DNA of 32,000 nt from Candidatus Saccharimonadota bacterium (GTDB lineage Bacteria; Patescibacteriota; Saccharimonadia; Saccharimonadales; Saccharimonadaceae). A program made the position numbers and the translations under genes. The notes under the pieces are model-generated. The model was not told the DNA's origin. It did not search any database and worked only from the letters and a program-made list of their open reading frames with translations. This document shows positions 3,509 through 32,000 of the stretch, one piece after another (position 1 is the stretch's first letter; each line of letters starts with the position of its first letter). Location of the stretch: the NCBI GenBank assembly GCA_000503915.1, contig CP006915.1, forward strand, positions 510,001 through 542,000, read 5' to 3'.

Positions 3509-4804
3509 ATGTTAGATATCCGTTATATTCGGGAGAATGCCGACAAAGTCCAGGAGGTCGTTAAAAGTAAGGGCTATGACGTTTCGATCGCTGAGCTACT
3601 GAAACTCGATGATGAGCGCCGCAGTCTGCAGCAGCGAGTCGACGAACTGCGCGAAAAACGCAACACCAATGCAGCGAAGATGAAGGATGGTAGGCCGGAG
3701 CAATCACTGATTGACGAGGGTAAGCAGATTAAAATTGAACTTGCCGAGCGTGAGGGCTATTTGACCAACACTGATGCCAAGTTTGCTGAGCTTCTCAAGA
3801 GAGTTCCAAACATGCCGTGGAATGATGTACCGTTTGGTGCGAGTGAGGATGAAAATGTTGAAGTGAAAGTTGTGGGTGAAAAACCACAGTTTGATTTTAC
3901 GCCAAAAAACCATTATGAGATCGCTGAGGCTAAGGGCTGGCTCGACAAAGAGCGTGCCGCCAAAGTAGCTGGTGCTCGCTTTGCCTATGTGATGGGTGAT
4001 CTAGTGAAGCTGCAGCTGGCGATCGAGCACTTTGTGATAAACGCGCTCACCGATGAAGTTGTTTTGAAGAAGATCGCCGGAGAAGCGGGGCTAAGTGTCA
4101 GCACACGCCCATTTGTACCAGTATTGCCGCCGCTGATGATCCGCACCGAATCGTACGATCAGATGGATCGTCTCGAACCGCGCGACGATCGCTACAAGAT
4201 TGAAGGCGAAGAGTTGTGGCTGCAAGGTAGTGCGGAGCACGTCCTCGGCAGCATGCATGCCGGTGAAATTTTCGAAGCCGAGCAACTGCCACTTCGCTAT
4301 CTGGGTTTTGCCACCAGTTTCCGTAAAGAAGCGGGCACCTACGGTAAAGATATGGAAGGTCTCATCCGCATGCACCAGTTTGATAAATTGGAGATGGAGA
4401 GTTTCACGACAGGCGAGAAGAGTTTTGATGAACATCTGTTCTTTATCGCGATTCAAGAATATCTCTTACAACAACTTGGTTTGCCGTATCACGTGCTGAT
4501 GAAATGTACGGCTGACATCGGTAAGCCGAATGCCCGAGGTGTTGATATGGAGGTCTGGCTGCCGGGGCAGGGCAAGTACCGTGAGACGCATACGGCTGAC
4601 TATATGACCGATTACCAAGCGCGACGGCTGAATACGCGCGTGCGCACTGAAAATGGATTAGAGCTAATTCATACCAACGATGCAACGGCCTTTGCGCTGG
4701 GTCGTGCTATGGTTGCAATCATTGAAAACTACCAGACCGCCGAAGGGGATGTGCGTGTGCCAGAAGCGTTGCGACCATATCTTGCAGGCCGTGAGATTTT
4801 GTAA
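3509..4804 (+). CDS. serS: Seryl-tRNA synthetase
   Basis: 431 aa with an N-terminal coiled-coil arm and class II motifs (FRKEAGTYGKDMEGLIRMHQFDKLE; TNDATAFALGRAMVAIIENYQ). Confidence 0.95.
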   Translation: MLDIRYIRENADKVQEVVKSKGYDVSIAELLKLDDERRSLQQRVDELREKRNTNAAKMKDGRPEQSLIDEGKQIKIELAEREGYLTNTDAKFAELLKRVPNMPWNDVPFGASEDENVEVKVVGEKPQFDFTPKNHYEIAEAKGWLDKERAAKVAGARFAYVMGDLVKLQLAIEHFVINALTDEVVLKKIAGEAGLSVSTRPFVPVLPPLMIRTESYDQMDRLEPRDDRYKIEGEELWLQGSAEHVLGSMHAGEIFEAEQLPLRYLGFATSFRKEAGTYGKDMEGLIRMHQFDKLEMESFTTGEKSFDEHLFFIAIQEYLLQQLGLPYHVLMKCTADIGKPNARGVDMEVWLPGQGKYRETHTADYMTDYQARRLNTRVRTENGLELIHTNDATAFALGRAMVAIIENYQTAEGDVRVPEALRPYLAGREIL

Positions 4805-4896: not shown

Positions 4897-5289
4897 TCAG
4901 TCGCGAGTCCTGAAGTACATCCACGTCGATCCGGCGAGGTAGTCGCTGGACGGCGCGTCGAACATGACGATCGCTCGGCCCGGGTACGAGTTGGCCGTGG
5001 CACGGGTGAGCTTGTCGAGCGGGAACTGGTAGTCCGTGTTCCAGCCCTCGCGGATCACCTCCACGTGTCCGCCACGCGGGTAGCGGAGCTCAGTCTTGAG
5101 CTCGTCGACCGCGAAGTTGACGATCGTGTTGCCACGCTCGTTGAAGTAGGCGATCACCTCCGTGCAGATGCCCGACTCGACCAGGAGGACGCTGTCCTTG
5201 AGGCCGAGATGGGGCTTGTTGTGCACGGTGACGTGCTTGCCGATGAGGGTGTTCGCGATGTTGCTGATCTTCTCGATGTTGCTGGTCAT
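4897..5289 (-). CDS. Hypothetical protein (130 aa) with Actinomycetota-like codon usage
   Basis: Only 9 of 130 sense codons end in A/T (hand count, GC3 about 93%). The SD GAGGAG lies 7 nt upstream of the ATG and an in-frame TGA lies 4 codons upstream. I recognised no family. The plus-strand ORFs 5065-5373 and 5162-5485 are high-GC shadows. Confidence 0.75.
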   Translation of the reverse strand: MTSNIEKISNIANTLIGKHVTVHNKPHLGLKDSVLLVESGICTEVIAYFNERGNTIVNFAVDELKTELRYPRGGHVEVIREGWNTDYQFPLDKLTRATANSYPGRAIVMFDAPSSDYLAGSTWMYFRTRD

Positions 5290-18538: not shown

Positions 18539-18811
18539 TTATTGTACGGATACTTGCGTGCGTGGGGCAGTCTTGCCGGTAAACCGGCGAGTTTTTACCT
18601 TAGTAAATTCTACGATACCGTCTTTGGCAGCATGAATCGTGTAGTTACGGCTCATAAATGTGCCTGGGCCGGCAACCTTCGTGCTGCCAGTTTGACGCAC
18701 GAGGACTTCACCAGTGGAGACTTTTTGGCCACCAAAACGCTTTACGCCAAGACGCGCACCAGCATTGTTGTGGACGTTCTTGCTTGAACCGCCAGCTTTG
18801 ACGTGTGACAT
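18539..18811 (-). CDS. rpmA: 50S ribosomal protein L27
   Basis: The sequence MSHVKAGGSSKN...RLGVKRFGGQ...VRQ.G matches the conserved L27 N-terminus. The SD AAGGAG lies upstream. There is no Prp-type N-terminal extension. Confidence 0.92.
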   Translation of the reverse strand: MSHVKAGGSSKNVHNNAGARLGVKRFGGQKVSTGEVLVRQTGSTKVAGPGTFMSRNYTIHAAKDGIVEFTKVKTRRFTGKTAPRTQVSVQ

Positions 18812-23644: not shown

Positions 23645-24373
23645 ATGGAAGCTGCGAGGGAGAAGCGCATAAATGGGGGGCAGCCTTCAGGCATTACACC
23701 TGTCGTAGTGGCAGCGCATGAGCTAAAATCCCCGCTTGCACTCATTCGTCAGTTGCTCTTAGATCTTGATTCAACTCCTGCCGATCATAGGGAGCGCCAG
23801 CGCCTGATCGATCAAATGGTGCAGGTGAGTGAAAAGGCCCTCCGTCTAACGAGTGATATTACCAAGGCCGAGACGGCACAGCAGGCGCTCTTTGAGCTTT
23901 CGCCGGTAAATCCTCTGACGGTTTGTGAAGATGTCGTGACAGAGCTTGAACGGCTGTACTCACTCCACAATTGTTCCCTCAAAATCGGTCGCCAGCGACA
24001 CATACCATCAGTAGTTGCCAATCGTGATCTATTGCGTAGAATCTTACTTAATTTTGCCGACAACGCACTGCATTATGCGGATCTAGATGGAGTGGTGGAA
24101 CTTCAGGCACACTTGATTCGTGAGCGGCAGACCGTCCGTCTGAGCGTTCGTGACTATGGCCCGCATCTTCCGATCGGCCAGTGGCGCAGTATGCTTCGCT
24201 CGCTCGGTGAACAGCAGCCGGTACATGCTCGCCCTCAGAGCAGTGGCCTCGGTCTCTATATTTCGCATCAGTTTGCCTCCGCTATGAACGGGCGTATCGG
24301 CGCGACTCGTCACCGCGACGGCGCTTCATTCTTCGTCGAGTTACCTATCTCCCGCCAGTTGTCACTATTATGA
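23645..24373 (+). CDS. Histidine kinase core (HisKA + HATPase_c) without TM or sensor domain
   Basis: It has the H-box AAHELKSPLALI, the N-box LLNFADNALHYA and the G2 box SSGLGLYISHQFA. Only about 20 residues precede the H-box. Confidence 0.85.
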   Translation: MEAAREKRINGGQPSGITPVVVAAHELKSPLALIRQLLLDLDSTPADHRERQRLIDQMVQVSEKALRLTSDITKAETAQQALFELSPVNPLTVCEDVVTELERLYSLHNCSLKIGRQRHIPSVVANRDLLRRILLNFADNALHYADLDGVVELQAHLIRERQTVRLSVRDYGPHLPIGQWRSMLRSLGEQQPVHARPQSSGLGLYISHQFASAMNGRIGATRHRDGASFFVELPISRQLSLL

Positions 24374-24741
24374 ATAAGCCCCAGCTCATTATTGTCGAGG
24401 ATGACCAATGGCTGGCGGAGCATTATCGTCGCGTGCTCGAGCGCGAGGGCTATGAGATATACCACGCGCCGCACGCGCTGGCTGCTATCGATTTGATCGA
24501 CGATGTCCGGCCGCAAGCCATCATTTTGGACGTGCTACTGACTGGTACAAATGCACTGGCGTTGCTTCACGAGCTTCAGTCGCACACGGATCTGGCAAAG
24601 ATTCCAGTGATTTTGGCAACCAATTTGGCCGACCAAATTATGCTTGATGATGTCCAGTCGTACGGTGTGAAACGTATCTTAAATAAGGCGACGATGCATC
24701 CAGAAGATATCATTACTGCGGTGCGGAGTGTGTTGCTGTGA
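24370..24741 (+). CDS. Stand-alone response regulator receiver protein (123 aa)
   Basis: It has the acidic pocket VEDD, the acceptor ILDVLL, T in ILATN and K in LNKA. An ATGA overlap links it to the kinase and a GTGA overlap links it to recO. Confidence 0.85.
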   Translation: MNKPQLIIVEDDQWLAEHYRRVLEREGYEIYHAPHALAAIDLIDDVRPQAIILDVLLTGTNALALLHELQSHTDLAKIPVILATNLADQIMLDDVQSYGVKRILNKATMHPEDIITAVRSVLL

Positions 24742-25415
24742 GAACGATCCGTACCAAAGCCATCGTCCTACGCCGCACGAATTATGGTGAAGCCGACCGA
24801 GTCGTGCAATTTCTGACGCCGAGCGAAGGAAAACTGAGCGTTATGGCACGTGGTGTCCGACGCGAAAAGAGTAAATTGGCAGGGGGAATAGAACTTTTTG
24901 CTCGCTGCGATGTGACCGTGGCGACCGGCAGGGGTGAACTCGGCATCCTAACTGGCTCGCGGCTGGAAATATTTTATTCGCATATCATGAGTGACTATGA
25001 CCGGTTGCAGTTTGGCTACGATGCGATCAAGCAGCTATCAAAAGCGGCTGATAATATGGACGAGCCAGCTTTTTTTGATCTGCTCGACCAATGTTTTGCC
25101 TCGCTCAATGACGTGAATGTTCTGCTTGAGATTACGAAGGCCTGGTTTTGGTTGCAGCTAGCGATTTTGCTCGGTGTGGGCTTGAATCTTTCGACTGATG
25201 CTGAGGGTATGAAGCTGGTAGAAGACGCGACGTATAATTTTTCTGAGCATGACCACGCTTTTGTCTTTCACGAAGGCGGCAATTTTACTAGCGACCATAT
25301 CAAAGTTTTGCGGGTTCTCAGTGCGCAGTCGCCAAAGGTTGCTGCTCAGGTGCAGGGAGTGGGGAGATTAATCACAGATTGTCTTTGGGTGGCTGAACGC
25401 GCCGTCGCACACTAA
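24738..25415 (+). CDS. recO: DNA repair protein RecO
   Basis: It has the N-terminal OB-fold signature (AIVLRRTNYGEADRVVQFLTPSEGKLSVMARGVRR.KSK). The start is GTG. Confidence 0.85.
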   Translation: MRTIRTKAIVLRRTNYGEADRVVQFLTPSEGKLSVMARGVRREKSKLAGGIELFARCDVTVATGRGELGILTGSRLEIFYSHIMSDYDRLQFGYDAIKQLSKAADNMDEPAFFDLLDQCFASLNDVNVLLEITKAWFWLQLAILLGVGLNLSTDAEGMKLVEDATYNFSEHDHAFVFHEGGNFTSDHIKVLRVLSAQSPKVAAQVQGVGRLITDCLWVAERAVAH

Positions 25416-25426
25416 GAAAGGGAAGA

Positions 25427-25448
25427 CCCCGCCATGTTTCAGGCGGGG
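25427..25448. terminator. GC hairpin between convergent recO and the 236-aa ORF
   Basis: CCCCGCC (25427-25433) pairs with GGCGGGG (25442-25448) around an 8-nt loop. A U-rich run occurs only on the minus-strand side (CUUCCCUUUCUU). Confidence 0.5.
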
Positions 25449-25457
25449 GTGTAGAGG

Positions 25458-26168
25458 TTACTCCCTTCGAAATAGTGAGCGCAGAAGCTTTGCCGTCAGC
25501 ACGACATTGATATCGAATACCAGACGAGCCGACGAACTAGCGAGACTACGGAGCTCACGTCGCCGGGCAGATATTTCAATCCGCCGAAGCAAAAGCTGCT
25601 GCCTTTGCGACCCTTGGGCGTATGGCAGAGCAGCGTCGATGGCAATCCGCTGTTCGCGGATATGACAATCTGCCGCACTCAGCGCAAACTCGATGAGGTT
25701 TCCGATCGTTTCCTGATCTGGCTGTTTCATCAGTTGGATACGCCAGAGGTAACTCTGAGTAATACGTTGCTGACGTAAGCCCTTGGCATTGCTCATGTCC
25801 TGTTCATGCAGCCGCAATGCTTTCTCGACAAGCGCGAGGCCTGCGTCGATATCTTCCGTCTGTGCCAAAAGCAGCCCGTAGTCTCTGAAGACACGGGCAA
25901 GCCCGAGTACCTCATCTTTGCGGAATGACTCGGTTGCCAGTCCAAAGTAACGCTTTGCCTGCATCGTCTCGCCTCGCCACCAAGCACGTAGCGCTAGCTG
26001 ATGGAACAGCTCGCCCCGCCATGCCAGTACCTGAGCGTCACGATTGAACGTGACGGCAATGCGGACACTGTTTTCGTATGCACTAAGCTCGGTGCTGTCG
26101 AAATTCTCTTTAAACTCCTTGAGTACCTCGCGTGCTGGAGTATCCTTGGGGCGGAATGGAATGCCCAA
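25458..26168 (-). CDS. Hypothetical all-helical (TPR-like?) protein, 236 aa
   Basis: It is a long ORF with a TTG start preceded by GAGAGGA. A TATAAT on the minus strand lies at plus 26218-26223. The repeated helical Ala/Leu/Arg-rich segments are suggestive of TPR repeats, but I cannot verify that. Confidence 0.55.
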   Translation of the reverse strand: MGIPFRPKDTPAREVLKEFKENFDSTELSAYENSVRIAVTFNRDAQVLAWRGELFHQLALRAWWRGETMQAKRYFGLATESFRKDEVLGLARVFRDYGLLLAQTEDIDAGLALVEKALRLHEQDMSNAKGLRQQRITQSYLWRIQLMKQPDQETIGNLIEFALSAADCHIREQRIAIDAALPYAQGSQRQQLLLRRIEISARRRELRSLASSSARLVFDINVVLTAKLLRSLFRRE

Positions 26169-26288
26169 CCTGCCATCATCCTCTCACGTGCGGATTCGAA
26201 AAGAGCACCAGCCTGTCATTATACAGGAGCAAGCCTGAGAAATGACTGAATAGTGCAGATTACTACTGTCTGTTATATACTGTTACTA

Positions 26289-27620
26289 ATGGAAAACAAC
26301 GTAAAACTTGAAGATATTGTCAGCCTCGCGAAAAGGCGTGGATTTATATTCCAGGCCTCGGAGATTTATGGCGGTTTGGCTGGATTTTATGATTACGGCC
26401 CACTCGGTGTTGAGATCCTCAACAAATTAAAAGCAGAGTGGTGGAAAGCGGTGGTCACCGAAGCCGATAACATTTTTGGTGTTGACGGTGCGATCATCCA
26501 AAATCCGAAGCTGTGGGAGGCGAGTGGGCATGTGGCTGGCTTTACCGACCCGATGGTCGAAGATGTCGTCACGCACAAGCGCTATCGAGCCGATCATTTG
26601 GCAGGCGTTGATTCTACCGACCTCGATGAGCTAAAAGAATTACTCAAAGGTAAAAAATCACCAGATGGCAACGAGCTGAGTGAGCCACGCTTTTTCAACA
26701 TGATGATGCAAACATGGGTCGGGGCAGTGCAGGACGAATCATCAGTCGCGTACCTTCGCCCGGAGACAGCCGGCTCGATCTTTACGAACTATATGAACGT
26801 GAAAGACACGATGCGTGCGAAGCTGCCGTTTGGTATCGCACAGATCGGTAAAGCGTTTCGTAATGAGATCAGTCCTCGCGACTTCATCTTCCGGGTTCGT
26901 GAGCTCGAGCAAATGGAGATGCAGTATTTCATCAATCCGAAAGACCAGTCGGTGACGTACGAGTACTGGCGCGAATTTGCCTGGAGGTTCCTCGTCGAGC
27001 GACTTGGTATCGCAGAGGAAAATCTGCAGTGGCACGAGCACGACGAAAATGAGCGAGCGCACTACGCGGCAGCAGCTCATGACATCTACTTTAAGTTCCC
27101 ACAAGGATTTAAAGAACTGTGGGGTACGCATAATCGCACCGATTTTGACCTAAAGAATCATCAGCGTGTCAGCGGCAAGGACTTTACCTATAAAGATCTC
27201 GAGAGCGGGGAAGAGTTCACGCCGCACGTTATCGAAAGCTCGGTTGGTCTTGGCCGTATGCTACTGGCAGTACTCGTCGATGCGTACCGAGAGGAAGAAA
27301 TCAACGGCGATAAGCGTGTCGTACTGAAGCTAGAGCCAGAGCTGGCGCCATATCGCTATGCGGTCTCGCCGCTACTGAAAAACAAGCCGGAGCTCGTTGA
27401 GAAAGCCCGTGAAGTGTACAAAATGTTGAAGAAAAAATACGGTGCGGTCATGTGGGACGACAACGGCAACATTGGTAAACGCTACCGCCGCCAAGACGAA
27501 ATCGGTACGCCATACTGCGTGGTGATCGATTTTCAGACGCTTGAAGATGGCACTGTAACTGTGCGTGATCGTGATACAACTGAACAAATTAGAAAAAATA
27601 TCAATAAGATCGAGGAATAA
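26289..27620 (+). CDS. glyQS: Glycyl-tRNA synthetase, alpha2 dimeric type
   Basis: It has the motifs YGGLAGFYDYGPLG, LRPETAGSIF and FRNEISPR, plus a C-terminal anticodon-binding domain. I prefer the ATG at 26289 (TATACT-7 nt-ATG) to the GTG at 26253 in the track. Confidence 0.93.
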   Translation: MENNVKLEDIVSLAKRRGFIFQASEIYGGLAGFYDYGPLGVEILNKLKAEWWKAVVTEADNIFGVDGAIIQNPKLWEASGHVAGFTDPMVEDVVTHKRYRADHLAGVDSTDLDELKELLKGKKSPDGNELSEPRFFNMMMQTWVGAVQDESSVAYLRPETAGSIFTNYMNVKDTMRAKLPFGIAQIGKAFRNEISPRDFIFRVRELEQMEMQYFINPKDQSVTYEYWREFAWRFLVERLGIAEENLQWHEHDENERAHYAAAAHDIYFKFPQGFKELWGTHNRTDFDLKNHQRVSGKDFTYKDLESGEEFTPHVIESSVGLGRMLLAVLVDAYREEEINGDKRVVLKLEPELAPYRYAVSPLLKNKPELVEKAREVYKMLKKKYGAVMWDDNGNIGKRYRRQDEIGTPYCVVIDFQTLEDGTVTVRDRDTTEQIRKNINKIEE

Positions 27621-27624
27621 CTAA

Positions 27625-28194
27625 ATGCAACCTACGCTACATTCCTGGAATGGTGTGCTGTGGCGAATCAAGAATAGCGAGGTTGCATTCGCACACTGTC
27701 CAACACACCAGGGCATACAACTCGATATCTTAAGTAACGACGGTCGCCCTGTCGATCAAGCAAGAATGAAATATATCTTGAGTAGTACTCGTTTTGTGTG
27801 CCCAATGGATAATAAAATGTTTAGTATTGAGAACGACTATTTTACTTTAAGACGAAGAGTGATAGCAATTACGAAGTCTGAGGCATATAAGGATGCGAAG
27901 ATTATAGATATAGATAACATATACACACCTATTCTAAGAGTTGCACCGAAGCCTAAAGATGATAGGTACTCTGTCCAGGTTGAGATTGACGAGACACCTA
28001 ATGGAAAAAAGCTTGTTATTTATGCTATAGATCGTAAAAATCCTGATGAGAAAACTCAGATTTTTATAGACCCACAGTTTGATAAGATCAGCTTCGATGG
28101 GAGAGGCGACCTACACCCAAATATGATATTTTCCAAAGTAATCGCATACTTTAAGGACGAAAAAAAGGCCACCCTAGAGAGGAAGGAAGACTGA
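27625..28194 (+). CDS. Hypothetical protein (189 aa), AT-rich gene
   Basis: It starts 4 nt after the glyQS stop, with GAGGAA upstream. It contains two CP-x-[HD] pairs (HCPTH, VCPMD) that could form a small metal-binding knuckle. I recognised no family. Confidence 0.55.
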   Translation: MQPTLHSWNGVLWRIKNSEVAFAHCPTHQGIQLDILSNDGRPVDQARMKYILSSTRFVCPMDNKMFSIENDYFTLRRRVIAITKSEAYKDAKIIDIDNIYTPILRVAPKPKDDRYSVQVEIDETPNGKKLVIYAIDRKNPDEKTQIFIDPQFDKISFDGRGDLHPNMIFSKVIAYFKDEKKATLERKED

Positions 28195-28200
28195 GATATT

Positions 28201-28578
28201 ATGAGTATGAAAAAAGAAATTGGGACAGACAATGTAGGCACAGCACCAACGTTGTCGCAGGCAATCGAAACGAACGGAATGGTATTTGTATCTGGGCAGA
28301 TTCACGCAGATAAAAACTGGAAACTACAGGGCAAAACAGTAAAGGAAAAACTCGACGTAATTTTTGAGAATATCCGGCTGATACTTGTGGTCGCTGAACT
28401 GGAGCTGAACGATATCGTAAAAGCGACGATTTACGTAACAGACATGGCGCAAATTCCCGAGCTAAATCAACACTATTCAAGTTACTTTTCTGGCGTGCTA
28501 CCAGCACGTGAAGCGGTGTGTGTAAAAGAGCTCCCGCTCGGTGCGACAATCGAAATTAGCGTGATTGCTGCGAGGTAG
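28201..28578 (+). CDS. RidA/YjgF/TdcF (L-PSP) family protein
   Basis: 125 aa with family-typical segments (VFVSGQI, IVKATIYVTDM, ARE.V.V..LP.GA.IEI). Confidence 0.8.
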   Translation: MSMKKEIGTDNVGTAPTLSQAIETNGMVFVSGQIHADKNWKLQGKTVKEKLDVIFENIRLILVVAELELNDIVKATIYVTDMAQIPELNQHYSSYFSGVLPAREAVCVKELPLGATIEISVIAAR

Positions 28579-28583
28579 AAAAT

Positions 28584-28910
28584 ATGGATATTGAATACAA
28601 CTTCTCAGGTTCTATAAAAGTTACGTTAGACTACTCTGATCTTTCAATGATTCAGTCACATGGCTATGCGGTTGAACGCGAAGGTTTTGCCGGCATTGAA
28701 AACAAAACGTGGGTTCGGCTAGGTCATAATAGAGACCCTATGGCGATCATCGATGACGATGGTGATCTGAACGTTTGGATACCACGTGATGTAGTCTCTC
28801 CAGTTGAGATTCCTCGCAAAAGTATCCATGCCAGTAGTAGCGCTCTTGGGGATATTGTTGAACATTACCTTGGTGAAGACGGTAACGTGACAGTGGATTG
28901 GCCAAGTTAA
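28584..28910 (+). CDS. Hypothetical protein (108 aa)
   Basis: It starts 5 nt after the RidA-family gene with GAGGTAG upstream, and is the third gene of an apparent operon. I recognised no family. Confidence 0.5.
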   Translation: MDIEYNFSGSIKVTLDYSDLSMIQSHGYAVEREGFAGIENKTWVRLGHNRDPMAIIDDDGDLNVWIPRDVVSPVEIPRKSIHASSSALGDIVEHYLGEDGNVTVDWPS

Positions 28911-28941
28911 TGACTGATCAAAACTTGATATCTCTGGCGAT

Positions 28942-29385
28942 CTATAGATAGTTTCCTATGCCGTCGATAGACTCTGCGCCTGTACTTCTTTGCAGCTCGT
29001 TTTTTAATGCACGTTTGAATTTTTCCATGCCGTTCTTGTCATCTTCATTAATTAGCTCCGGGTTGCCGTGCGGTCCGTACAATAAGATAGCGATAGAGGC
29101 GACTGTCCCCAGCTCCGCTACTCTTCTGGCAATTGGTGGAACAGCTTCCTCCAGCGTATCTGTGCCAAAGCTGCTCGTAGGATCGCTCAAGAAGCCAGAC
29201 TCATCCATATCAGGCATACCGTCTGCCGCAACAAATAATTCACCGACCCGAACAGTTTTCGAAAAACCTATGTCGGTAAGCCCAATGTGACGAGAAAGAA
29301 TAAGACCGCTTGGTGTATTTGTCTCTTCGGTGTGTTGAACCAGGAAGTGATTGTATGATTCATGAATCTCATGTCTGTACGTCAT
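28942..29385 (-). CDS. Hypothetical protein (147 aa from the ATG at 29385)
   Basis: The track start at 29499 would overlap the divergent sigma gene. The internal ATG at 29385 is preceded by TATAAT (plus 29392-29397) with a 6-nt spacer, matching the leaderless pattern seen elsewhere. I recognised no family. Confidence 0.5.
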   Translation of the reverse strand: MTYRHEIHESYNHFLVQHTEETNTPSGLILSRHIGLTDIGFSKTVRVGELFVAADGMPDMDESGFLSDPTSSFGTDTLEEAVPPIARRVAELGTVASIAILLYGPHGNPELINEDDKNGMEKFKRALKNELQRSTGAESIDGIGNYL

Positions 29386-29444
29386 GCTGAAATTATATGC
29401 CTCGCACCCTTGGGTGCAAGCATTAGCCGTATATCGCCCATGCT

Positions 29445-29472
29445 TTGACCGCAATAGACTTAAGAGTATTAT
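29445..29472 (+). promoter_or_regulatory. Promoter TTGACC-N16-TATTAT for the sigma factor gene
   Basis: TTGACC is at 29445-29450 and TATTAT at 29467-29472. The ATG follows 11 nt downstream. Confidence 0.55.
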
Positions 29473-29483
29473 GAACTCTAGAT

Positions 29484-30110
29484 ATGTCGATAGATTCATT
29501 TCCTATTGTAGGTGCTGGTTCCTACACCGAGCTTAGCTATGATGATTTGGCAGTGCGGTATCAGCAAGGCGACCCTCAAGCTCTCGAGGAGGTTTGTACA
29601 CGTCAATATAGAAGAATTGAGGGCATACTTATTCATAACGGGGTTGATTCACAGGATGTTGCTGATGTAGCTCAGCAAGTAGTAGAAAAGATGATAGGAG
29701 CGCTAGATAAGTTTGAGCCGGGCGGATTTAACGCCTGGGTGGGAAGGATTGCTCACAACTGTGCCATGGATTATCATCGCAGGAATAGGCATAGGAAATC
29801 GAAAATTCTTAATTGTGACGGTGAGATTGCGGATCAGATAGTGGAATCGCATAATGAGATCGAAGACCTCAATGCGATCTGGATAGTGGACGATATTATC
29901 GATCAATTGAGAGAATTTGATGGAGCGGGTTTTGATTCAAAGGATCTCGGTGAAATATTGAAGCGTTTAGCTCTCGGTGAGAAAAATATTGAGATTGCTG
30001 AAGATATGGGACTGAACCACCTCACAGTTGCAACACGTATTTCGCGTTTGAGAGCTCGTCTAGCGAAAGCATCTTTCACGCGTGAGTCTGTCGATCGCCT
30101 GATACAATAG
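29484..30110 (+). CDS. Sigma-70 family RNA polymerase sigma factor, ECF-like (208 aa)
   Basis: Region 2 is recognisable (FNAWVGRIAHNCAMDYHRRNR), as is the region 4 HTH (GEKNIEIAEDMGLNHLTVATRISRLRARL). They are separated by an acidic linker. Confidence 0.8.
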   Translation: MSIDSFPIVGAGSYTELSYDDLAVRYQQGDPQALEEVCTRQYRRIEGILIHNGVDSQDVADVAQQVVEKMIGALDKFEPGGFNAWVGRIAHNCAMDYHRRNRHRKSKILNCDGEIADQIVESHNEIEDLNAIWIVDDIIDQLREFDGAGFDSKDLGEILKRLALGEKNIEIAEDMGLNHLTVATRISRLRARLAKASFTRESVDRLIQ

Positions 30111-30114
30111 AAGT

Positions 30115-30131
30115 ATGAAATACGAAGGCAC
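30115..30131 (+). repeat. Direct repeat copy 1: ATGAAATACGAAGGCAC
   Basis: It is an exact 17-nt match to 30614-30630. Both copies begin at a start codon and encode MKYEGT. Confidence 0.9.
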
Positions 30132-30537
30132 ACCGAAGTTCCTCGGCCTTTTAAAAGCTATGCAAGATTCATGGGGCCCTGAAACAAGTCTGGCCGGTGA
30201 CAAATTGCCAAGTGATAACCCGGCACGGGGACAGTGTGTCGTTTCTTCGTTGGTGGTGCAGGACTTCCTAGGCGGCGATATCGTACGCGTGCATGTGACT
30301 GGTGATGGCATTGATGAGAACCACTACTTTAATAAACTTGCCGACGGTACAGCCATTGATGTCACGCGCAAACAATATGAGGATAAGCCGATTACCCTAG
30401 TAGATCATCCACCCGACCTAGAAAGTAACGGCTATTCTTCAATGCGAGAGCGCTGCTTGGCTGATGACGATACGCGTCGTAGGTACATGTTGCTCAAAGG
30501 CATGGTAGACCAAAAGCTCGCAGAACTTCAAGGTTAA
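30115..30537 (+). CDS. Hypothetical protein (140 aa), possibly YunG-like
   Basis: The segment ARGQCVVSSLVVQDFLGG ... HYFNKLADGTAIDVTRKQY resembles my recollection of the YunG family (low certainty). TGaTACAAT (30100-30108) lies 6 nt before the ATG. Its first 17 nt are identical to the start of the FKBP gene. Confidence 0.55.
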   Translation: MKYEGTPKFLGLLKAMQDSWGPETSLAGDKLPSDNPARGQCVVSSLVVQDFLGGDIVRVHVTGDGIDENHYFNKLADGTAIDVTRKQYEDKPITLVDHPPDLESNGYSSMRERCLADDDTRRRYMLLKGMVDQKLAELQG

Positions 30538-30613
30538 ATGCGATAATAGAAAGTGAAGGGCAAAAAGTTACCAACAAGTGAGATAAGTGATATGAAAGTT
30601 CTAAGGAGGATAC

Positions 30614-30630
30614 ATGAAATACGAAGGCAC
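30614..30630 (+). repeat. Direct repeat copy 2: ATGAAATACGAAGGCAC
   Basis: It is an exact 17-nt match to 30115-30131. Confidence 0.9.
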
Positions 30631-30997
30631 GAAACTACCAGATTTTGAACCGCGCGACGAAGTAAAAGAACTTGAGATTATCGACGTAGAAGTCGGAAAT
30701 GGAGAGGAAGTGAAAGCCGGCGCGACAATCACTGCGCACTATACCGGTGCACTGTGTAAAAACAGCATTATTTTTCAAAGCAGTCACGACTTTGGAAAGG
30801 CGATTACCTTTGGTCTCGACCAAGTCATCAAAGGCTGGACACTCGGTGTACCCGGCATGAAAGTTGGAGGTACGCGCCGGCTGATCATCCCAGCTGAAAT
30901 GGCATACGGTGAAGCCAGTCCAGCGCCAAACATTCCAGCAAACAGCGACCTGGTGTTTGACATCGACTTGGTGGCGATTCCACGAAACGGAGCATAG
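30614..30997 (+). CDS. FKBP-type peptidyl-prolyl cis-trans isomerase
   Basis: It has FKBP_C motifs (TAHYTG, VIKGWTLGVPGMKVGGTRRLIIPAEMAYG, LVFDIDLV). The SD AAGGAGGA lies upstream. Confidence 0.88.
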   Translation: MKYEGTKLPDFEPRDEVKELEIIDVEVGNGEEVKAGATITAHYTGALCKNSIIFQSSHDFGKAITFGLDQVIKGWTLGVPGMKVGGTRRLIIPAEMAYGEASPAPNIPANSDLVFDIDLVAIPRNGA

Positions 30998-30998
30998 G

Positions 30999-31634
30999 GT
31001 GGACGTGAAGGCTGGAAGCCCGTGGCAGAGACATTTCGGTCTAGAATGGACGCTCAGCGCTGTCGTAACACTAATAGCTCTGATCGCGTGGGTAACAACA
31101 CGACATATTGGCCAGCAGCCGCTCGGTGTCTATGATGTGTTCCCGATCTTTGGGCTGATCGCATTTAGCTGGATGTGGGTGGTGTATGTCAGCGGGGCAG
31201 CCAGGCGGCTTCTCAAGCTAGGAAAACCGCACGGTCATTTGTACTGGAGTGTGTCCTCAGGACTTATATTGGTAGCTATAATCATCCATCCACTACTCGT
31301 AAGTAGTGGCTTGGCCTGGGACGGTCTAGGATTACCGCCAGGTAGCTATTTTGCGGCCTATCAATCGCTTGGTTGGTTCCTCTTGCTAGGTTCAGCCGCA
31401 CTACTTGTCTTTTTATCATATGAGTTGAGACGGTGGTGGGGGAAAGCCAGCTGGTGGAAGTGGGTAGAATCCGCTCAAAAGCTGGCAATGGTAGCTATTT
31501 TCATCCATTCGCTCGTACTTGGCCGCGAGTTAACAGTCGGTTGGTTTAAGACTATCTGGTGGCTCTATGGCCTAACACTTATGGCTGCATGGGTATATAA
31601 TTATTACTATGATAAAAGAAGGGTCGGGAGGTGA
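30999..31634 (+). CDS. Hypothetical integral membrane protein (about 6 TM) with intramembrane histidines
   Basis: I prefer the GTG at 30999, just after the FKBP stop, because the track start at 30909 overlaps the FKBP gene by 89 nt. His residues sit in predicted TM helices (AIIIHPLL, AIFIHSLV). Any likeness to ferric-reductase/MsrQ-type haem b proteins is speculative. Confidence 0.55.
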   Translation: MDVKAGSPWQRHFGLEWTLSAVVTLIALIAWVTTRHIGQQPLGVYDVFPIFGLIAFSWMWVVYVSGAARRLLKLGKPHGHLYWSVSSGLILVAIIIHPLLVSSGLAWDGLGLPPGSYFAAYQSLGWFLLLGSAALLVFLSYELRRWWGKASWWKWVESAQKLAMVAIFIHSLVLGRELTVGWFKTIWWLYGLTLMAAWVYNYYYDKRRVGR

Positions 31635-31637
31635 GAC

Positions 31638-32000
31638 ATGCATGTGAACAATAGGGTAATAGTAGGATTGTTGATCGCAGCGGTGCTGATAGTTATCGCA
31701 GCGGTAGCCTACGTGGTATTAATGCTACCAGGGGTCCGGCAGACATCTACAGCCGGTAAAGCGGAAAAGGGCCCTATAACTATCGTCTATACGGATAACG
31801 GTTTCCAGTCTCCAACGTATAAAGTAGCTAAAGGTGAGACAGTAACTGTTACCAACAAGTCGACCGGTGATTTGCAGTTTTCTTCTGGTAACCACCCAAC
31901 CCACTTAGAAGAACCCGAATTGAATATGAATATTCTAGCACCTGGCGAAAGCGCCAAATTTACTCCGACCAAAATCGGTACATGGACTTTCCATGACCAT
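31638..32000 (+). CDS. Membrane-anchored cupredoxin-like fold protein, 5' part (runs off the window)
   Basis: The ATG at 31638 is preceded by GGGAGGTGA. An N-terminal TM is followed by a beta-sandwich-like segment (ITIVYTDNGFQSPTYKVAKGETVTVTNKS...GTWTFHDH). It is absent from the ORF track because no stop lies in the window. Confidence 0.5.
   Translation, partial: MHVNNRVIVGLLIAAVLIVIAAVAYVVLMLPGVRQTSTAGKAEKGPITIVYTDNGFQSPTYKVAKGETVTVTNKSTGDLQFSSGNHPTHLEEPELNMNILAPGESAKFTPTKIGTWTFHDH

Follow-up and report, generated by a model that had tools for sequence, protein, structure and literature searches.

Small accessory genes and a partner-less ECF-type sigma factor in a gene-turnover zone after glyS of a Saccharibacteria genome

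Saccharibacteria and other bacteria of the Candidate Phyla Radiation have very small genomes and few regulators, and the storage and exchange of accessory genes, together with the presence of alternative sigma factors, bear on the adaptation of such episymbionts. In a 32-kb window (the whole stretch of DNA analyzed here, part of a ~845-kb Saccharibacteria genome, to which all coordinates refer), a patch of six small genes directly follows glyS, the gene of a glycine--tRNA ligase, and one of the six encodes a sigma factor of the extracytoplasmic function (ECF) type. An earlier note on this DNA had taken the six for a foreign, self-contained and separately regulated module. Is the patch such an imported and co-regulated unit, or has it been assembled in another way? 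We consider it probable that the patch is the first third of a lineage-specific stretch of fast gene turnover, and that it represents a mosaic in which small genes have come and gone one by one, rather than an imported or co-regulated module. One sub-lineage of Saccharibacteria keeps a rare partner-less ECF-type sigma factor in this turnover zone.

The genes of the patch and of its flanks are:

26289..27620, plus strand: glyS, single-chain dimeric-type glycine--tRNA ligase, GlyRS (NF003211, E = 1e-176)
27625-28194, plus strand: gene A, 189 aa, without family match
28201-28578, plus strand: RidA, 125 aa (PF01042, E = 2e-27)
28584-28910, plus strand: gene C, 108 aa, without family match
28942-29385, minus strand: gene D, 147 aa, without family match
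29484-30110, plus strand: ECF-type sigma factor, 208 aa (PF04542 and TIGR02937)
30115-30537, plus strand: YunG, 140 aa (PF24585, E = 1e-27)
30614-30997, plus strand: FKBP-type peptidyl-prolyl isomerase (PF00254, E = 1e-25)

Gene calls agree with the six open reading frames (ORFs) of the earlier note, with their coordinates and with their tight spacing. The intergenic gaps measure 4 nt for glyS/A, 6 nt for A/RidA, 5 nt for RidA/C and 4 nt for sigma/YunG, the last being the one for which the note had placed YunG 5 nt downstream.

Gene order around glyS

The locus was compared with the 80 closest glyS loci, each taken with 8-kb flanks from a species-representative genome (GlyRS 58-85% identical); nearly all of these are labelled Saccharibacteria or Saccharimonadales. 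The upstream order, from position 18539 of the window through a histidine kinase (HK), a response regulator (RR) and RecO to glyS, is kept almost everywhere, and the synteny of RecO and GlyRS in particular is kept in most of the 80 relatives. Within 8 kb downstream of glyS, none of the 80 carries A, RidA, C, D, the sigma gene, YunG, FKBP or the membrane-protein gene that comes next. When loci were compared in pairs, 76% of the pairs had a common homologue over the last 3 kb leading up to glyS, as against 20% over the first 3 kb beyond it, and the DNA similarity between the window and these relatives ends at about 27589-27601, inside the last 30 nt of glyS. Judged from gene order, synteny breaks off sharply at the end of glyS throughout the phylum, and a zone of gene turnover begins there. 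The accessory character of the six genes, as proposed earlier, is borne out by this comparison of glyS-FKBP synteny, which the earlier note had recommended: the block is missing after glyS from all 80 species-level relatives, and in none of them (0/80) are the same six genes conserved.

The extent of the zone can be gauged from the Pif1-GH1-CofD block, which lies 0.06-4.5 kb past glyS in many relatives, compared with ~9 kb in the source genome of the window. There, the gap from glyS to Pif1 holds 16 genes, of which the six of the patch come first, followed by FKBP, the membrane protein, a cupredoxin-like protein, a peptidase S51, LOR, GNAT, an RrnaAD-type methyltransferase, KwaB and two pilin-like genes. 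The variable zone continues for ~6 kb past FKBP to the Pif1 gene, beyond the end of the window, and this part is equally non-conserved across the lineage; the right boundary that had been drawn at 30613 is therefore without comparative support. The closest backbone relative, L004 (loci fetched for comparison are designated L followed by a number), fills the same slot with YaaA, an M78 peptidase, CYTH, RNase H, a DNA-alkylation repair protein, TrmB and an FMN reductase.

The left boundary, which the earlier note had placed in front of gene A, does not hold either, as A goes with glyS in three other genomes, where it is likewise low in G+C. A search with gene A returned 19 proteins including the query, the relatives being 49-76% identical, and all those that are labelled or can be placed belong to Saccharibacteria. 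In three genomes (L084/85, L091/92, and L178-180) A lies directly 3' of glyS, with a gap of 5-6 nt or an overlap of 4 nt, and what comes after it differs: Ser_hydrolase and His_Phos_1 in L178/179, nine unrelated enzymes and then FKBP in L084/85, four unknown genes and then FKBP in L091/92. Three further genomes have A away from glyS. A is the lowest-GC gene in L084 and L178 as well (0.39-0.41 vs. 0.46-0.52 for its neighbours), and its composition is therefore a trait of the family, not a sign of import. In blastn comparisons with L084 and L178, similarity extends through A to ~28180 and reappears 10 nt ahead of FKBP, at 30604; in L084 and L091, FKBP is 82-84% identical and stands downstream of A with different cargo between the two. 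Since similarity resumes at FKBP and A adjoins glyS, both A and FKBP are assigned to the backbone, which leaves as cargo:

28195..30603, no strand assigned: strain-specific cargo segment (2.4 kb) with RidA, C, D, the sigma gene and YunG, as opposed to the A...FKBP backbone

Comparison of gene order and sequence thus shows A to be a clade-specific backbone gene coupled to glyS, and not cargo. According to the alignment columns, the proteins of the A family combine a variable N-terminal domain that has a conserved CPxH...CPxD with a C-terminal beta domain, which is the most conserved part. The AlphaFold2 (AF2) model of A, built from an 18-sequence alignment, has a pLDDT of 80, with values of ~90 or above for residues 1-90, and its N-terminal domain is beta-rich. 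Foldseek, which had been suggested for the unknown proteins and was run for A, gave no match at E < 1e-3 in PDB or BFVD, and a profile search against PDB found nothing.

Along the backbone itself (24738-27620 of the window), relatedness is discordant. RecO (58-62%), A (66-72%) and FKBP (82%) have their nearest relatives in L084/L178; for GlyRS (85% identical to L004 vs. 51-53%), HK and RR, L004 is by far the nearer. In the GlyRS of L084, an identity of 75% is confined to the C-terminal 121 aa. These identities suggest mosaic ancestry of, or recombination around, glyS. For a TPR-like gene on the minus strand at 25458-26168, in the interval from RecO to glyS, none of the fetched relatives has a homologue, and unrelated minus-strand genes occupy this slot in L004, L084 and L178, so that there is a second, smaller variable slot on this side of glyS.

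The sigma factor and its surroundings

By its domain content and its relatives, the protein encoded at 29484-30110 is an intact ECF-type (group 4) sigma factor of a tiny Saccharibacteria clade. The earlier designation as ECF-like is confirmed by two models scoring above their curated cutoffs, PF04542 for sigma2 (35.3 bits vs. a cutoff of 24) and TIGR02937 for sigma70-ECF (52.5 bits vs. 42.9), the latter aligning residues 34-196 with positions 3-164 of a 165-position model. The best sequence matches in PDB are AlgU, RpoE, SigW and CnrH, with the sigma2 domains of RpoE, AlgU and SigW matching at ~31 bits. For sigma4, the Pfam models remain below their cutoffs (15 bits vs. 25.7 for r4_2, and 22.6 vs. 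23.5 for GerE), and the helix-turn-helix segment aligns with that of other ECF sigma factors. No match to r3 or r1 was found in the 208 aa, and between sigma2 and sigma4 there is only a linker of ~40 aa.

Few relatives of this protein are known. A word-indexed search of 5.8 billion proteins returned only the query itself, whose exact sequence is also encoded on contigs of a sediment metagenome (SRR944699, PRJNA167727), and an exhaustive search of 1.84 billion representatives returned two proteins that are clearly related (38-39% identical, E = 1e-35 and 1e-31), followed by generic ECF sigma factors at 59 bits or less. The clade amounts to 3-4 known sequence clusters, characterized by the long, acidic linker of ~40 aa between sigma2 and sigma4 and by a (F/Y/H)DG..F(D/E) motif before sigma4. 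In L173, the order is RidA (81%), a membrane protein, sigma (38%) and a cupredoxin-like gene. L174 represents the same locus in another Saccharibacterium and reads GlyRS C-terminus (67%), DUF998, sigma (39%), LOR (65%), a cupredoxin-like gene, KwaB (66%), a 170-aa protein, Pif1 (74%), GH1 (63%) and CofD (86%). L176, which carries the 59-bit match P0025, has a GlyRS C-terminus (76-80%), a 191-aa protein, sigma (28%) and a beta-propeller protein with a transmembrane (TM) segment, while the next-best match, P0026, lies on a contig of 827 nt, too short to show its neighbours. The sigma gene is thus linked to glyS in three genomes, namely the source genome of the window, L174 and, more distantly, L176.

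The immediate neighbours differ in all four contexts (4/4), being D and YunG in the window, a membrane protein and a cupredoxin-like gene in L173, DUF998 and LOR in L174, and the 191-aa and TM beta-propeller proteins in L176. The view of the earlier note that the sigma factor is an orphan is well founded in this respect: no co-transcribed partner is conserved in the four contexts, and a sequence scan found neither a TM-grade hydrophobic stretch nor an HxxxCxxC motif in A, C, D or YunG. The sigma factors of the window and of L174 are 39% identical, as against 63-86% for the flanking proteins, which indicates that the sigma gene is evolving fast.

The divergent region of 98 nt between D and the sigma gene (29386..29483) holds signals for both. 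Its best sigma-70-like site is TTGACC-16-TATTAT at 29445-29472 (plus strand), 11 nt before the ATG of the sigma gene, and no Shine-Dalgarno sequence precedes this ATG. On the minus strand, a TATAAT at 29397-29392 ends 6 nt before the start codon of D, and where the -35 element of D would be, at 29404-29417, there is an inverted repeat, GCACCC-TT-GGGTGC (6+6), which is a possible operator. By the look of the sequence, both transcripts would be nearly leaderless. RNA folding of the region is unremarkable (z = -0.26). The earlier note had proposed to look for the target motif of the sigma factor from this region outward, and no motif above shuffles was found: the sequences ahead of the four sigma genes, few and much diverged as they are, share nothing beyond shuffle level, and an 8-mer search allowing one mismatch in ten intergenic regions of the four loci, including those by the LOR and cupredoxin genes, gave nothing above shuffled controls.

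It is probable that the sigma gene is transcribed from a housekeeping-type promoter in the 98-nt region, into a nearly leaderless mRNA. Because no neighbouring gene is conserved with it, the sigma factor most likely works stand-alone, its activity being set by its own synthesis or turnover and not by a co-transcribed anti-sigma factor. On its two sides, glyS, A, RidA and C would probably be co-transcribed, and YunG would probably be translationally coupled to the sigma gene.

The sole hint to what the sigma factor might control is the cupredoxin-like gene, which is found downstream of it and co-oriented in three genomes (window, L173 and L174). In the window, this gene (31638-32000) begins 3 nt after a gene for a multi-pass membrane protein (30999-31634) that has no Pfam family and is rich in His and Trp in its predicted TM segments; the cupredoxin-like relatives downstream of sigma in L173 and L174 have His-rich N-terminal regions. 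The membrane protein and the cupredoxin-like protein may form a redox or copper-handling pair. We entertain, as a doubtful possibility, that the glyS-linked sigma factors constitute a new, Saccharibacteria-restricted ECF group without anti-sigma factor that controls co-oriented, syntenic flexible genes, i.e., those of the His-rich cupredoxin-like membrane protein and of LOR (in the window, L173 and L174), and whose fast divergence reflects adaptation to host or environment. If this were true, it would be a rare case of a dedicated transcriptional switch in an episymbiont genome of ~845 kb. One sigma gene with a few candidate targets makes a small, concrete object for transcription studies in cultivable relatives, and interest in it would rise if its regulon were to include host- or stress-related accessory genes. 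A literature search, limited in reach, found no paper on ECF sigma factors in Saccharibacteria or on the function of YunG.

The other genes of the patch

YunG, the last gene of the patch, appears to have come to its place by an event of its own. The first codons of YunG and of FKBP contain the two copies of an exact direct repeat:

30115..30131, plus strand: left copy of the exact 17-nt direct repeat ATGAAATACGAAGGCAC, at the YunG start
30614..30630, plus strand: right copy of the same repeat ATGAAATACGAAGGCAC, at the FKBP start

These are the 2 matches of the repeat in the window, where 0 of 100 shuffles gave the like, and they bracket a unit of 499 nt (30115-30613). Both proteins begin with MKYEGT. 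FKBP orthologues start with MKYEGTKL or MAYEGTKL and have the same DNA there, which makes the 17-nt motif native to FKBP. Homologues of YunG, by contrast with the window copy, start with M-x-K-P-T-L and can be aligned to the latter only from residue 7 or 12; with its first six codons foreign to the family, YunG has borrowed its start from FKBP. On the evidence of these sequences, an illegitimate join placed YunG between the sigma gene and FKBP and left a 17-nt scar. Upstream of FKBP, the orthologues share only a generic GGAGG, which does not tell which of the two copies is the older. YunG was found at this locus in no other genome, and the neighbours of its closest homologues did not settle their taxonomy.

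The protein itself is a clear member of its family (PF24585, 96.9 bits vs. a cutoff of 27). W20, the DNPARGQC of residues 34-41, G54, H70, D82 and Q87 are invariant in all 62 aligned YunG sequences, including the copy of the window, and the pattern of Cys41, His70 and Asp82 resembles, we infer, the active site of a hydrolase or transferase, an enzyme-like feature that argues against an anti-sigma role for YunG. A functional coupling of sigma and YunG was also considered and is not supported by 80 metagenomic YunG loci (394 kb): an ECF-like ORF stands beside YunG in only 2-3 of the 80, and never upstream on the same strand.

RidA belongs to the YjgF/L-PSP family and is probably an enamine/imine deaminase. 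Its score with TIGR00004 (101.8 bits) is just under the cutoff of 106.25, and it keeps the arginine of archetypal RidA proteins in a 'PAR' motif ('...LPAREAVCV...'). The orthologues of L173 and L089 are 81 and 78% identical, respectively, and identity to the closest copies at the DNA level is only 71-72%, which speaks against recent transfer from any sampled genome. In both L173 (1954-2370) and L089 (300-700), a GC-rich ORF for a very basic protein of ~70-80 aa, ending in ...RRAR.GK, is present on these 43%-GC contigs and is adjoined by a GC-rich, hairpin-forming element with 55-75 nt that are near-identical (96%). Neither this ORF nor the element is present in the window or in the other fetched loci.

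For A, C and D, zero matches were obtained in Pfam, NCBIfam, PHROGs and PADLOC, in keeping with the earlier statement that they belong to no nameable family, and none of the tests run points to a housekeeping family. Sequence searches of PDB with C, D and YunG gave nothing below E = 0.09. Gene C has GC values of 0.57, 0.38 and 0.37 at the first, second and third codon positions (GC1, GC2, and GC3), with GC1 above GC2 as in the neighbouring genes. For gene D, a start that gives 147 aa is favoured over the 185-aa ORF by public gene calls and by the sole homologue, which likewise starts with MTYRHE; the protein is predicted to be soluble and has a His-rich, conserved N-terminus (MTYRHEIHE...H13...H18...H33). 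Its AF2 model (pLDDT 50) is unusable. The single homologue, P0022, is 54-55% identical and lies on L089, a contig of 3.6 kb with the order 150-aa protein, RidA (78%), Ldh_2, membrane protein, D in convergent orientation, and LOR (63%) divergent from D, with no sigma gene beside D. As a conserved arrangement, the unknown-RidA-unknown operon of the earlier note is not supported; within this genome, gaps of 4-6 nt make co-transcription plausible.

The dip in G+C after glyS, on which the idea of an island was founded, is real. GC is 0.40-0.45 across 27501-30000 in 500-nt windows and mostly ~0.47-0.55 in the remainder, where a few windows reach 0.44-0.46; the lowest 3-kb stretch of the whole 32 kb begins at 27701 (0.439 vs. 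a mean of 0.497, sd 0.019, z ~ -3). The 32-38% counted by hand for 27781-27960 compares well with the measured 0.344, and the 40-43% given for RidA and sigma was slightly low, the measured values being 44.5-45%. By gene, GC is 0.398 for A, 0.450 for RidA, 0.437 for C, 0.466 for D, 0.445 for sigma, 0.492 for YunG and 0.497 for FKBP, relative to a mean of 0.512 (sd 0.027) in the 28 genes upstream, and the GC3 of the five genes from A to sigma is 0.37-0.47, as against a core mean of 0.55. The low GC does not extend over the entire proposed island, as YunG is not a low-GC gene.

Mobility functions were sought at several levels. There is no tRNA gene in the 32-kb window, Pfam and NCBIfam scans found no integrase or transposase domains, and Pfam found no phage structural or integration genes. 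The patch has no flanking or att-like repeats, the sole significant repeat being the one that brackets YunG alone. Rfam yielded nothing at E up to 1 on 25000-32000 and nothing at the gathering threshold on the whole window. Of the marks of a classical genomic island or integrative element, the patch has deviant GC and sporadic distribution, and it lacks an integrase, a tRNA or att site and flanking repeats.

At a distance from the patch, a 130-aa ORF on the minus strand (4897-5289) stands out with a GC of 0.618 and a GC3 of 0.924, the GC3 of the genome being ~0.55. It is protein-like, has no Pfam family and lies directly 3' of a 431-aa ORF (3509-4804) that, from a look at its sequence, is predicted to encode a seryl-tRNA synthetase. 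It could have been acquired from a high-GC organism, possibly, to speculate, of an actinobacterial host lineage.

Alternative explanations and related systems

The most direct alternative is the one from which the question arose, that the six genes are a foreign, self-contained island inserted after glyS whose genes are controlled by its own orphan sigma factor. The GC dip, the absence of the genes at this locus in the 80 relatives, their tight packing and the lack of an anti-sigma candidate fit this explanation. Nevertheless, we regard it as very unlikely, as it is largely refuted by the comparative contexts: the set is together in no other genome, A has other companions in other genomes, RidA and D are found where no sigma gene adjoins D, and sigma is found where C, D and YunG are missing. 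A is moreover part of the glyS backbone and low in GC in every genome examined, the sigma gene occupies this locus also in L174 and L176, among wholly different neighbours, no promoter motif is common within the patch, and the non-conserved zone reaches well past 30613. Even the word foreign is doubtful, because all homologues of A, D and sigma that can be placed are on Saccharibacteria-type contigs (according to their glyS or neighbour relatives or to the source label), two or three relatives have sigma at this very locus, and no integrase, tRNA, flanking repeat or phage match accompanies the genes. A narrower form of functional coupling, in which D or YunG would be a new type of soluble anti-sigma factor or partner, has slighter prospects still. 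It draws on position, as the divergent D and the probably translationally coupled YunG (4 nt downstream) occupy the usual places of sigma partners, on the conserved His-rich N-terminus of D, and on the ECF-like ORFs near 2-3 of the 80 YunG loci. However, the three relatives of sigma have neither D nor YunG adjoining, the D homologue of L089 faces LOR instead of sigma, YunG is a late addition that carries a junction scar and an enzyme-like Cys41-His70-Asp82 pattern, and the adjacency of ECF genes to YunG is near chance level and in the opposite order. Least credible of all is a phage-defence island or prophage remnant of which the patch would be a part. A KwaB-family gene (PF16162; 7484-8461 of L002) lies ~4.5 kb downstream of the patch end, outside the window, RidA matches the PADLOC profile of PD-T4-2_B at E = 9e-13, and sigma matches phrog_1740 at E = 1e-18. 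The PD-T4-2 match covers only the C-terminal part of the profile (182-292 of 294), that is, the RidA domain shared by both, and with PD-T4-2_A absent and no further PADLOC match, this anti-phage system was rejected; in addition, C and sigma gave no tblastn match in 50,697 phage records and none in scans of IMG/VR, and structural or integration genes are lacking. As for the KwaB-family gene itself, no obvious KwaA is present upstream of it, and L174, L091 and L011 keep it in the corresponding place.

We also judge it unlikely, if worth more consideration, that RidA, C, D and sigma came in one piece, by recombination at a hotspot, from a Saccharibacterium of lower GC, and were not inherited vertically. 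Discordant identities along the backbone, with RecO, A and FKBP closest to L084/L178 and GlyRS, HK and RR closest to L004, would be expected at such a hotspot. Against it, identity to the putative donors is low (38% for sigma, 54% for D, and 71-72% for RidA DNA), which would require an old transfer or an unsampled donor, and the locus of sigma is conserved in L174 and L176. Several points that favour this explanation or otherwise weigh against a mosaic of singly gained and lost genes have to be set beside it. The GC of the segment (0.44-0.47) matches that of the contigs with the closest RidA, D and sigma (L173 0.427, L089 0.425, and L174 0.455), the relatives of the glyS-A...FKBP backbone being at ~0.49, and the shared low GC3 is compatible with a single origin of the stretch from RidA to sigma in a lower-GC relative. 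The comparisons of sigma and D draw on samples of 3 homologues and 1 homologue, respectively, mostly on short contigs, and for gene C, searches of 1.63 Mb of fetched loci, of the phage records and of IMG/VR, which did not extend to the large protein databases, gave no homologue. The lack of a conserved neighbour does not prove that the sigma factor has no partner and leaves room for an anti-sigma factor encoded elsewhere. Lastly, the promoter and operon statements made above have nothing beyond consensus matches and spacing behind them, and the promoter scan for the sigma gene yielded 6 sites where shuffles would give 6.6, i.e., consensus matches with no enrichment.

With these points taken into account, a mosaic in a turnover zone remains, in our judgment, the probable reading. 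A recurring order (glyS, A in some genomes, RidA, D in some, sigma, cupredoxin-like gene, LOR, KwaB, and Pif1) is found in subsets with different fillers, the exception being L174, where LOR comes before the cupredoxin-like gene. That RidA, D and sigma are kept in relative order fits inheritance of a shared ancestral arrangement in which genes were then lost, gained or locally recombined differently from lineage to lineage.

This is no new kind of system, as both ECF sigma factors and flexible genomic regions are known kinds. Like flexible genomic islets or plasticity zones, the region shows a sharp synteny break at a housekeeping gene, mildly deviant composition, and small accessory or house-cleaning genes that differ from genome to genome (RidA, NUDIX, CYTH, His_Phos, GNAT, and YaaA). 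It differs from them in that the patch has no integrase, tRNA or att-like repeats, and in that several of its cargo genes keep their relative order, which is more like differential loss than cassette insertion.

The sigma factor resembles RpoE of E. coli, AlgU of P. aeruginosa, SigW of B. subtilis and CnrH of C. metallidurans in consisting of sigma2 and sigma4 within ~200 aa. Unlike these, its clade has no co-transcribed anti-sigma gene in any readable context, its sigma4 scores below the Pfam cutoffs, it has the long acidic linker of ~40 aa and the clade motif, and no self-promoter of the AAC/CGT type is recognizable upstream of its gene. Some ECF groups are without anti-sigma factor and are controlled by transcription or other inputs, and the sigma factor of the window is like them in being a stand-alone gene with variable neighbours. 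It differs from such groups, however, in having neither a C-terminal extension nor an adjacent two-component system or Ser/Thr kinase; the nearest HK/RR pair (23645-24741) belongs to the conserved block upstream of glyS and occurs as well in genomes that lack this sigma gene.

A different and more widespread ECF-type sigma factor of the phylum is carried by more distant Saccharibacteria, where it is encoded between efp and recA, likewise a few kb downstream of glyS (~6 kb in L060, L063, L065, L066, and L078). It is 22-29% identical to the sigma factor of the window and lies in a housekeeping block (MetRS, TatD, S6, SSB, EF-P, and RecA). In these genomes (15285-16272 in L060, 14631-15561 in L063), the gene is followed by an overlapping small ORF without Pfam family, a candidate anti-sigma gene. 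Therefore, the partner-less status is a trait of the glyS-linked clade, and not of the phylum.

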